From: Eledone cirrhosa
Taxonomy: Eukaryota
Assembly (NCBI GenBank): GCA_964016885.1
Contig: OZ024746.1
Coordinates: forward strand, 98,332,001 to 98,396,000
Reading direction: 5' to 3'
Length of the DNA: 64,000 nucleotides
The position numbers were made by a program, and so were the translations under genes. This document shows positions 25,480-61,501 of the stretch, in pieces. Below the pieces are notes generated by a model that saw nothing but the letters and a program-made list of their open reading frames with translations, made no database searches and had not been told where the DNA came from. The first letter of the stretch is position 1. Every line of letters begins with the position of its first letter.

Positions 25480-26005
25480 CGATTCCAGCATTAAACTACT
25501 TTATTTATCAACCTCCAAAGGAGGAAAACCAAAGTTGACCTTGGCAGGTTTTGAACTCAGATCGCAGTGAACAGAATAAATACTTCAAAGTTCACTACAT
25601 TTTATAATTATATATTTTCCACTTTCTCTATCCAGTGAAAGGTCCCTAACGCAACTACTCATAAGCGCATACAATATACAAATTTGAGTATGTGTTGGTT
25701 GTTTACCGACACTTCAGTATGCAGGTTGGAGCACTCAACGAAGTGCGCGGGCTGGTTTGTTTATTCCGGAGTAATGTAAAAACTAGAAGTGTAAGTCAAC
25801 AGTGTAAAATTAGCTTCGTTTATTCATATTCGCTGCTATATATATTTCAATGATAGCAATTATTCAACAGCTATGACCTGAAAACATATGCTTTTAGTTC
25901 CTTAGAAGACTAACAACACACCCTGGATCTGAGCATATCATTGAATTAACAAGGTACAATCTATTACAACATTATGTTTTCCTCTTTTTTCTGTTCAAGT
26001 TCTTA

Positions 26006-26063
26006 CATCCTGATGAGGTCATAGCTGTTGAATAATGGCTATCACTGAAATATATGTAGCAGC
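26006..26063 (+). ncRNA. hammerhead motif (stem I disrupted), same family as 36585-36639
   Basis: CTGATGA-GGTcATAGCTGTTgAATAATGGCTATcACT-GAAA-TATATG-TA-GCAGC. Confidence 0.6.
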
Positions 26064-26111
26064 GATTGTGAATAAACGAAGCTAATTTTACCCTGTTGAC
26101 TTACACTTCTT

Positions 26112-26210
<99 letters not shown>

Positions 26211-26340
26211 TCCCGGGTTAAATCGGGGATAACCACAGTAAGTAAGGTACTCAATACATAGCAGAGTAAAAGTTATTTAATATAGAAATGGCTTCTACAG
26301 GACTAGAACTGTTTCATTCGGAGGAAATCATCAGAAAGTC

Positions 26341-26391
26341 GGCTTTCTGATGATTTCCTCCGAATGAAACAGTTCTAGTCCTGTAGAAGCC
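26341..26391 (+). ncRNA. type I hammerhead ribozyme (mirror copy on minus strand 26290-26340)
   Basis: GGCTTT-CTGATGA-tTTCctccGAAt-GAAA-CAGttctagtcCTG-TA-GAAGCC. 6-bp stem I, looped stem III, GUA triplet. Confidence 0.8.
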
Positions 26392-26401
26392 ATTTCTATA
26401 T

Positions 26402-26491
<90 letters not shown>

Positions 26492-26725
26492 AGAAATTGG
26501 CTGTGTTCAGACGAGAGATGGGGTTCTTATATTAAGATGGCACCCCTAGGACTCCAACAGAAGTTTATGCAGCCAAGGATAGTAATTTTATTGCCTAAAC
26601 GTATGTTATATTACTCTTGGTAGACGACAGTTACGCAAAGGGCTGTCCCCTTTTATCGAACCCGTAACCACAGGATTTCTAAACGAACTTCTTAAGCGTA
26701 TGATCGAGCTTGAACTATTTAACTA

Positions 26726-40588: not shown

Positions 40589-41988
40589 AACAAGGGGAGA
40601 GGAATACTGCGTGGTTGCACATGGATTACATCGCATTAAAAATCAGAAACCTCAGGAGGTTGGTGTGAGCAATAACTAAAATAAGCTATTGGGACAAGTG
40701 AAACGCGTAAAGCGAGTGAGACAAGTAAACAATATATATATATATATGGGGGGGGGGGGGGCGTTCATGTCCCATAATTTAGTTGTTCGACAAAAATGAA
40801 ATCTATAAACTAAGTATCAGAATTTAAAAAGTAAGTGCTGGACTCGATATGATCGATTAAACTAATGCGGTGCCCCAGCCTGGTCGCAGTCTACTAACTG
40901 AAATAAGTAAAAATATAAAAGAGAATTTCATTAAGTCCTGATATCCTATTTAGCACAAAATGCTTTTAAAATGGTTGATTAATTCAAATGTTACCCCTTT
41001 ACAATTGTTGTGAAAATTTGAAATTTTAGACGAAGTACTTTTAATGTAATAGCTTAATAACCCTTTTCTCTTTCCCCTCCTTTTCTTCTGAGGCCTAAGG
41101 GTCCTTGCTTTTCATCCCTCCTTTTCCTCTCATTTATGGCATTTATATCCCCTTTCCTTTACTTTCCTATACAGCCAGATCTGCTCTTCTTTACCCCCAC
41201 CCACCCACGCTTTTGTTGCTTGGTTTCGTTTTTATCGTTTTTTTTTTCTTTTTTCTTTTTCTTTCATATTTCCATCAATATTTGTAATGTTATTTATACA
41301 ACTCTGAATCGATTTATTGTCTGTAATTGTGTGCTTGAATGTTTTAAATACAATGGTATTGTAAACACACATCCTAATATATATGTGTGTGTGTGTGTGT
41401 GTTTGTATGGTGATGATGATTTCATACGAATGAAACAGTTCCAGTCCTATAAAAATCACTTTTAGGGAGGGTGGAAATTCGATTAAATCGACTCCAGTAC
41501 ATTACTGGTACTTTATTTTATCGACCCAGTAAGGATGAAAGGCAGAGCTAACCTTGATTTTAAATCAGTACAAAAAGGGTCGTAACTCTATGCCACGAAG
41601 CATGGTGTCCGACGCTCAACCGGTACTGCCAATTCACCACCGTATACACTTCTAAATAATAAATATATGTATAGTGCTGTTTTATACTTTTGAAGAACGG
41701 CTTGCTAATGTGGTTTGGTGTGTTACAGGACATTAAGAGTTAACGTCCTGTAATATCTGAAATATATGCTTACTTATGTACTAAACTAACATACATAACA
41801 TCAAATTACTGTAATTGTATCTAGTTACTTAAATACATCCGGTGTCGTCTGCTACAATTTTATTTACATAGTATTAACAATGGTTTCTAATTTAGACATA
41901 AGGCCGGCAATTCGGAGGCGGAGGACGGCGGCAGTTTAATCAATTCTAGTATCTATCTGGTACTTTCTTCTATCGACTGCGGATAGAT

Positions 41989-55644: not shown

Positions 55645-56009
55645 GTAAATATACACGGGTGTGTATGATTGTGTATAGAAGATTATATTAATAAGAGGAA
55701 TTCCAACTTTGTTTGATTTACTCGTTTTATTTACAATCCTTTAAAATTTATAATGGTATTATAATGAAATAGTATGATAGAATATTAAATTCTAAGTGTT
55801 AATTGAACAAGTACTTTCATGCTTTCGCAATCTTCAGGTTCATAATATGTGGTGACAGTCAAGTTTGCAATTTTCAACTGTCCCCTTTGCTTTTGCCGAG
55901 ACGTAGTCACTACTTTAAAATTCATAGCGAATCGTCTTCACAATATTTTAAAATAAACAGACAATTTTCAACAGTTGAAAATTGCAAACTTGACTGTCAC
56001 CACATATTA

Positions 56010-56048
56010 TGAACCTGAAGATTGCGAAAGCATGAAAGTACTTGTTCA
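56010..56048 (+). ncRNA. minimal type I hammerhead (identical mirror copy on minus strand 55804-55842)
   Basis: TGAAC-CTGAAGA-tTGCgaaaGCAt-GAAA-GTAC-TT-GTTCA. GNRA-capped stem II and palindromic stem III. Confidence 0.8.
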
Positions 56049-56160
56049 ATTAAAACTTAGAATTTAATATTCTATCATACTATTTCATTATAATACCATT
56101 ATAAATTTTAAAGGATTGTTAATAAAACGAGTAAATCAGACAAAGTTGGTATTCCTCTTA

Positions 56161-61421: not shown

Positions 61422-61501
61422 TTCCGGGTTCAATCGGGGATAACCACAGTTCATCAATCAACTACTAAAGTGATACTAAAGTGATAGTATGTGTGTGTAT
61501 C

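Follow-up and report, generated by a model that had tools for sequence, protein, structure and literature searches.

Does the 134-base palindrome at 26274-26407 of the window, the whole 64-kb stretch of DNA analysed here (C6:98332001-98396000 of a genome of ~3.0 Gb), represent a purposefully paired ribozyme, or can it be explained by the ordinary behaviour of a mobile element? The block was initially described as two complete hammerheads standing back to back without a spacer, in which a transcript from either strand would contain a ribozyme and could also hide it in a full hairpin. We propose that the palindrome consists of two head-to-head, 5'-truncated 3' ends of a Penelope-like retroelement of the Hydra clade, inserted in a (TA)n target, and that both likely arose in one insertion event through self-priming or template switching by the reverse transcriptase (RT). 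The probability of this reading is, in our estimate, about 0.85.

The palindrome and its hammerhead motifs

Inverted-repeat analysis of the window revealed two arms of 65 nt each, 26274-26338 and 26343-26407, which are 100% complementary around a centre of 4 nt, TCGG, at 26339-26342. The near-perfect palindrome of 134 bases is therefore real, but it is not strictly "spacer-less", since the 4-nt centre separates the arms. The (TA)n tracts reported to flank the block on both sides were also seen, both in the sequence and in the inverted-repeat list. The features of this locus, together with two other places in the window that are discussed below, are as follows.

26115..26209, no strand: left side of the insertion target, a microsatellite of (TA)n followed by (GA)n (sequence and inverted-repeat list)
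26210..26273, minus strand: 3' 'tail' extension of the minus-strand copy (one-sided in 17/17 loci; 3' end of long copies)
26274..26338, minus strand: left arm, a 5'-truncated copy (inverted repeat; its hammerhead motif, 26340-26290, scores 76.4 bits with model R1)
26339..26342, plus strand: centre TCGG, templated sequence of the plus copy (comparison with long copies)
26341..26391, plus strand: type I hammerhead motif of the plus copy (descriptor scan; 83.5 bits with model R1)
26343..26407, plus strand: right arm, a 5'-truncated copy whose short 3' end, ...CUAUAUUAAAUA, passes into (TA)n (inverted repeat)
26402..26489, no strand: right side of the insertion target, a (TA)n microsatellite (sequence and inverted-repeat list)
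41412..41457, plus strand: decayed, 5'-truncated single hammerhead copy that starts at a (TG)n tract inside the core (covariance model)
61424..61449, plus strand: terminal tail module CCGGGTTCAATCGGGGATAACCACAG beside (TA)n, then unrelated sequence (sequence match, 26 nt)

Read on the minus strand, the tail comes after ...CUAUAUUAAAU and ends in ...CCCGGGAUCU, and it contains the module that is common to 61424-61449. The short 3' end of the right arm recurs in longer inverted copies and in the sister family A2, described below. Long copies read ...GACAGUCGGCUUU directly before CUGAUGA, so the TCGG centre of the window is templated. Because the four bases are templated in long copies, the plus copy must be truncated a few bases further upstream than the minus copy; truncation lies ~9-10 nt before C3 in the plus copy and ~4 nt before it in the minus copy. 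Short contigs from the runs X1-X3 span the centre of the palindrome (for example, 26294-26368 and 26311-26371), although they may derive from other copies and come from the same sample as the assembly. When placed on the window, the X1-X3 contigs show many family variants.

The motif on the plus strand (26341-26391) has a stem I of 6 bp, GGCUUU/GAAGCC, followed by CUGAUGA, a U, a 3-bp stem II (UUC/GAA) closed by CUCC, another U, and GAA, with the result that stem II is flanked by U opposite U. Stem III is 4 bp long (ACAG/CUGU) with an 8-nt loop, UUCUAGUC, and A17 follows it; the predicted cut, after GUA, falls between 26385 and 26386. On the minus strand (26340-26290), no more than 4 pairs of stem I are contiguous and an A.C mismatch follows, because the centre of the palindrome is asymmetric, and the predicted cut falls between 26296 and 26295. 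The type I core, comprising C3-A9 (CUGANGA), G12-A14, A15.1-U16.1 and H17, is complete on both strands, and on both strands three helices surround it, stems II and III being closed by loops (stem II is weak). Each half thus carries a hammerhead-type motif, as claimed; on the minus strand stem I is shortened by the mismatch, which makes the two hammerheads of the palindrome unequal.

When stem I was set to at least 5 bp, the plus-strand motif was the sole descriptor match in the 64-kb window, and the same descriptor produced one match in total on both strands of 200 dinucleotide shuffles of the window. Rfam hammerhead models gave no match at the gathering score in the whole window and none at E <= 10 in 26150-26500, where generic miRNA-like hairpins scored far below the gathering score (MIR444, 43.6 bits). 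The G10.1-C11.1 pair is absent from the motif, which has U opposite U and then U-A instead. We consider it unlikely that the motif is a chance look-alike.

As RNA, the 134 nt form one perfect hairpin of -110.9 kcal/mol (z = -24 vs 200 shuffles). The minimum free energy (MFE) fold of the isolated 72-nt half is not a hammerhead (z = 0.11), and for the 51-nt motif the hammerhead fold has -6.1 kcal/mol vs -6.9 kcal/mol for the MFE fold. Two copies folded together reached -22.2 kcal/mol and formed an intermolecular, extended stem III (ACAG, CUAG, CUGU). The motif is predicted to cleave itself after GUA, probably as a dimer held through stem III by the self-complementary CUAG in the loop. The idea that a transcript spanning both arms would sequester the motif holds as a calculation, the full hairpin being set against the -6.1 kcal/mol of the hammerhead fold.

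Just upstream of the left (TA)n tract, the window contains another inverted repeat, 25800-25879 / 26016-26095, with 80-nt arms that are 93% complementary and 136 nt apart. The word CTGATGAG stands at 26010-26017, just before its right arm. The descriptor scan found no full hammerhead in this repeat.

Copies of the unit and its sister lineages

A genome count of such dimers was proposed with the original prediction as a check. The palindrome belongs to a repeat that is dispersed in the genome: the 134-nt query gave at least 1457 first-look candidates, and 16 of 30 sampled copies had an inverted partner. The 40 candidates that were scored had 88-100% identity and lay on both strands. The exact 45-nt arm occurs 123 times in the genome, vs 0 times for the reversed control. 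At all 17 loci examined, a tail of ~62 nt was present on exactly one side, so the unit is asymmetric, and (TA)n or a similar microsatellite flanked the insert.

Among 20 copies picked by the exact 45-mer, 7 extend upstream without an inverted partner (6 over the full 230 nt displayed and 1 over ~50 nt), and the remaining ones have an inverted partner, or a fragment of one, with variable junctions. The second sample (L087-L116, n = 30) was picked by a 90-nt part downstream of the predicted cut and is therefore blind to upstream sequence. It consisted of 9 long copies, the 16 copies with an inverted partner, which lay within 160 nt, and 5 simple 5' truncations. Across the loci inspected, the bases at the junction were TCGG, GG, CC or none, and the arms were 40 nt longer in L048, L110 and L111. 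Truncated sense copies started between -11 and +4 of C3 in 12 of 21 cases, a clustering at the 5' edge of the hammerhead that far exceeds an even spread over ~300 nt. Many junctions were nearly symmetric (-6/-6, -5/-5, -6/-4, -40/-40), which fits snap-back priming. None of 30 sampled genomic copies started at the predicted cut, between GUA and G; this leaves no trace of cut templates, and it neither proves nor excludes cutting.

The two other sites named in the original prediction were both found. The decayed copy placed at about 41413-41456 was recovered by our own covariance model at 41412-41457 with 40.5 bits (E 6.5e-8); C3 and the 5' strand of stem I are missing from it, and its stem III has a G-to-A change. 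The "left leader" said to recur at about 61425 is the module at 61424-61449, which is either a tail-only copy or part of a related family. The label "leader" was mistaken, however, as this sequence is the 3' tail of the minus-strand copy and forms the 3' end of the unit in long copies. A tRNA-derived SINE was rejected as a candidate, given that the supposed leader, although 'B-box-like', belongs to the element as its 3' tail. As a side observation, the decayed copy adjoins a SINE-like repeat at 41460-41557 (2237 first-look candidates, 89-95% identity), which was not normally linked to the hammerhead among 40 scored matches.

A sister family, A2, gave 2156 first-look candidates in the genome, and many of its copies are 98% identical. 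Its stem I is AGAUUC/GAAUCU vs GGCUUU/GAAGCC in the family of the window (family A): two pairs are changed on both sides, and one G.U has become G-C. Every one of the 4 loop II positions differs, and the core, stems II and III and loop III are identical. A2 (L077:380-545, L117-L146) has the overall unit and tail of family A, lies in (TA)n or (CT)n targets, and is frequently found as head-to-head pairs 170-440 bp apart. In an alignment of five sequences, 98.5% of cells pair, vs 32-51% when the partners are slid. Owing to the small number of lineages (two or three), the observed covariation score was attained in 36 of 500 column shuffles, and stems II and III showed no variation among the aligned families.

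Another relative of the motif is found in L142 (minus strand, 1-1300; G000:C4:61186241-61189356), a 310-bp tandem array of at least 4 monomers that are 100% identical and run off the locus. The monomer reads GUAGUC-CUGAUGA-UUUC UAACAA GAAU-GAA-ACGCGU-A-GAUUAC with a stem I of GUAGUC/GAUUAC (changes read by eye). It shares only the 5' half of the motif, and the self-complementary ACGCGU replaces the looped stem III. The best Rfam score on related loci came from this array (HH9, 19.2 bits vs a gathering score of 52). Judged by its sequence, the array looks retrozyme-like.

Coding sequence upstream of the unit

A search for outward-facing unit pairs 5-8 kb apart led to loci with ORFs. The ORF series contains YRDD in P0001, CNCHDKAAC (CxCX5C) and a YIG motif in P0002, and, further upstream, SDKTK in P0124. 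A 379-aa ORF piece had 164 homologues at E <= 0.001, the best of them ~700 aa long with E 2.5e-90. The homologue P0069 scored 31.4 bits with RVT_1 vs a cut-off of 29.6 (residues 194-397), and it is collinear with both ORF pieces (E 1e-87 and 4e-34). The ORF piece is 39% identical to residues 205-572 of P0069 over 368 aa, and the C-terminus of P0069 aligns with the YIG-bearing piece at the latter E value, 4e-34. In the element's own ORF pieces no Pfam RT domain was found, and Pfam GIY-YIG reached 19.9 bits, below the cut-off of 22.6. One homologue, P0046, carries the name GIY-YIG endonuclease in its source.

The ORF 3' end was located at 30 loci. Six of these have a same-strand hammerhead unit downstream, 439-1211 bp after the 3' UTR block, and nine have an inverted unit that abuts a 5'-truncated copy of the ORF, with differing truncation points. 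At the 4 ORF loci that were fully examined, the same-strand unit is 2.5-5.4 kb away with variable filling, which we read as nested insertions into internal (TA)n. The 3' UTR of the element has its own long (TA)n (L086:5240-5330, minus strand, and equivalents), the preferred target of the family. Between this tract and the hammerhead unit, the sequence varies by locus, suggesting that the nested insertions are self-targeted. A different Penelope-like ORF, P0003, lies at L086:2582-5307; it scores 29.5 bits with Pfam GIY-YIG, above the cut-off, has its own 440-bp inverted repeats, and seems to have inserted into the microsatellite of the first element's 3' UTR.

The Hydra clade was described by Craig, Yushenova, Rodriguez and Arkhipova (2021; PMC8557442, cited here from parts of the article and its supplement) as short elements with a single ORF and a C-terminal endonuclease. 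The marks given in those parts are DKT in place of DKG, a CxCX5C linker, insertion in (TA)n and readily detected canonical hammerheads. Penelope-like elements are reported in the same parts to be strongly 5'-truncated, to target (TA)n, and to bear a tail of 30-40 bp at one end as well as an inverted copy, itself 5'-truncated, at the 5' end. File S2 of that paper includes 11 Hydra magnipapillata families with the layout 'ctgatgat - stem II - [t/c]gaa - 3-4-bp stem III - a/t/c', 10 of which have tgaa and 1 cgaa. This U...U layout is what made the motif of the window look atypical. Our ORFs closely resemble alignment rows in the supplement, and the first 11 nt of the hammerhead in the window (CUGAUGA and the next four bases) are absent from the PMC8557442 supplement.

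As far as these parts of PMC8557442 describe it, the Hydra clade has in common with our element the DKT and CxCX5C motifs, (TA)n insertion, inverted 5'-truncated copies, the one-sided tail, and a hammerhead near the 3' end with the layout 'CUGAUGA-U ... U-GAA' and a 3-4-bp stem III. Compared with the same descriptions, stem II is weaker here (UUC/GAA vs UGCC/GGCA), loop III has 8 nt with CUAG vs 1-3 nt, the 3' UTR is ~1.1 kb long with an internal microsatellite, and there are thousands of copies, many of them very short and palindromic. We place the element in the Hydra clade by its motifs (DKT, CxCX5C), and the assignment is meant in that sense. That each arm carries a hammerhead-type motif, as the original prediction had it, is supported by the compensatory stem I pairs of the sister family and by the layout shared with published Hydra-clade hammerheads.

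The motif can also be compared with the hammerheads of Penelope-like elements described in those parts of Cervera and de la Pena (2014; PMC4209133) that we used, in which G10.1-C11.1 is highly conserved, stem III has 0-2 bp, and a dimer mode of action is proposed for animal hammerheads. Like the hammerheads described there, ours is a type I motif in the terminal repeat region of an element, with families that differ by compensatory changes, and it has a palindromic element in stem/loop III suggestive of action as a dimer, with which the cofold agrees. Unlike them, as far as those parts go, it has no G10.1-C11.1 pair, and its stem III has 4 bp and a large loop. It is a weak-stem-II variant that was missed by the Rfam models.

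Origin of the palindrome and competing explanations

The steps of the proposed insertion are drawn from the anatomy of the copies and from parts of PMC8557442 and PMC3846280. The RNA of the element would be reverse-transcribed at a nick in (TA)n, and synthesis would stop early. The new strand would then prime itself or switch template, so that the same 3' part would be copied again in inverted orientation; the palindrome would come from the snap-back of the first cDNA strand. One end would retain the 62-nt tail, and the other would end in the A/U-rich ...CUAUAUUAAAU beside (TA)n. The arrangement is the usual scar of a Penelope-like insertion, and the locus therefore needs no special mechanism.

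A close parallel is that of the Penelope pLTRs of Adineta vaga, for which parts of Arkhipova et al. (2013; PMC3846280) report head-to-head inverted repeats with junction palindromes. The authors interpret the structure as self-priming, and one of the inverted repeats can bear a tail of ~31 bp. The palindrome of the window resembles these pLTRs, as described in those parts, in its head-to-head repeats, its junction palindrome and its one-sided tail. According to the same parts, the Adineta vaga repeats flank full elements, whereas here the arms are mostly ~65 nt long, so that the whole insertion is a hairpin. A literature search gave no description of hairpin-only hammerhead copies, and the general structure is found in PMC3846280. 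The kind of structure is known, then, and what is new is the family, the hammerhead with its weak stem II, and the mass of copies that are hairpins only. The genome contains a Hydra-clade element at thousands of copies, and its many bare hairpins could feed small-RNA pathways. The copy in the window is probably an inert by-product; a read-through transcript would give a 65-bp hairpin rather than a ribozyme, and the locus is possibly a source of double-stranded RNA.

In L1 elements, twin priming during target-primed reverse transcription also produces inverted, 5'-truncated structures. There, a different, upstream part of the same RNA becomes inverted. The palindrome of the window is unlike this, as both of its arms copy the same 3' part.

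Junction clustering allows two readings: either a hairpin master was amplified, or the RT stops after it has copied the whole hammerhead. In the first reading, the palindrome with its tail (~196 bp) would be the master of a non-autonomous hairpin SINE that is copied whole by a Hydra-type RT through the 3' tail, and most palindromes would be inherited. Besides the tight clustering of junctions (the 12 of 21 truncated sense copies mentioned above), a master of this kind would account for the short arm ending always at ...CTATATTAAAT and for changes that are mirrored in both arms, as in L012. Against it, the junctions differ by templated bases, which small central deletions from one master cannot restore; the inverted partners beside long, ORF-bearing copies have quite different truncation points; and long inverted copies share the same short 3' end. 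We regard the amplification of a hairpin master as unlikely, at something like one chance in a handful.

The second reading follows from the pile-up of inversion junctions a few bases from the 5' edge of the motif. In this case, the folded hammerhead would mark the site at which the RT stops and self-primes, and its fold, not its cutting, would shape integration. We hold this idea to be quite doubtful. If it were true, it would provide a long-missing role for hammerheads in Penelope-like elements, and the clustering at the edge of the hammerhead offers a small, testable lead on integration.

It is very improbable, in our judgement, that the palindrome is a back-to-back ribozyme pair with a purpose, its hairpin working as a switch by which a ribozyme on either strand is hidden or exposed. 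The motif does occur on both strands, and the hairpin by far exceeds the ribozyme fold in stability, as a switch of this kind would have it. However, the palindrome of the window is one of many insertion variants that differ in their junctions, arm lengths and one-sided tails, its two motifs are unequal, and the copies decay like neutral repeats (88-98% identity). The special paired-ribozyme device of the original prediction is accordingly not borne out: many loci show this arrangement, with a (TA)n target, a one-sided tail and junctions that vary.

A foldback or MITE-type DNA transposon with an accidental hammerhead-like string would produce a perfect palindrome in TA-rich DNA and would agree with the generic miRNA-like Rfam hairpin scores. 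This reading is largely refuted and has a scant chance of being right, because the tail is on one side in 17/17 loci, no target-site duplication is visible, and the copies grade into a longer unit joined to the RT-endonuclease ORF; moreover, a chance hammerhead is unlikely (1 in 200 shuffles), and the motif covaries in the sister family. Palindromes are a known failure of assemblers, but a false inverted duplication made by the assembly is scarcely conceivable here, as the architecture is present at dozens of independent loci with different flanks and the centre is crossed by X1-X3 contigs (which may be other copies, from the assembly's own sample). A Helitron was also rejected as the identity of the palindrome.

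The locus was further compared with retrozymes. Animal non-LTR retrozymes were reportedly described by Cervera and de la Pena in 2020. In the parts of Li, Clavereau and Pollet (2026; 10.64898/2026.07.22.740005) consulted, they are non-autonomous repeats that carry type I hammerheads and have a relationship to the ends of Penelope-like elements. The 310-bp tandem array L142, with a hammerhead of the same lineage in the same genome, is like the retrozymes of those parts, and this sharing of a hammerhead agrees with the proposed descent of animal retrozymes from Penelope-like elements. A non-LTR retrozyme was rejected for the feature in the window, whose motifs are inverted on opposite strands with no direct tandem. 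Retrozymes, as described in part of that source, are direct tandem repeats that can give circular RNA, whereas the inverted pair of the window cannot release a unit by two cuts on the same strand.

Inverted pairs of other hammerhead-like motifs were also noted. A large inverted repeat at 55700-56160 of the window (arms of ~180 nt, spacer of ~85 nt) has head-to-head hammerhead-like motifs in its inner arms, at 55837-55800 on the minus strand and 56015-56052 on the plus strand. The motif is of the Hydra type, with CUGAAGA-U, UGC GAAA GCA, U-GAA and the self-complementary AGUACU, and it scored 12.3 bits with model R1 (E 1.1). Two further, unrelated hammerhead families, found at L013:1841-1933 and at L056 near 214 (plus strand) and 545 (minus strand), also form inverted pairs, and they have a short stem III (ACC NNN GGU). 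The pair at L013:1841-1933 is itself a near-perfect palindrome, centred just upstream of stem I.
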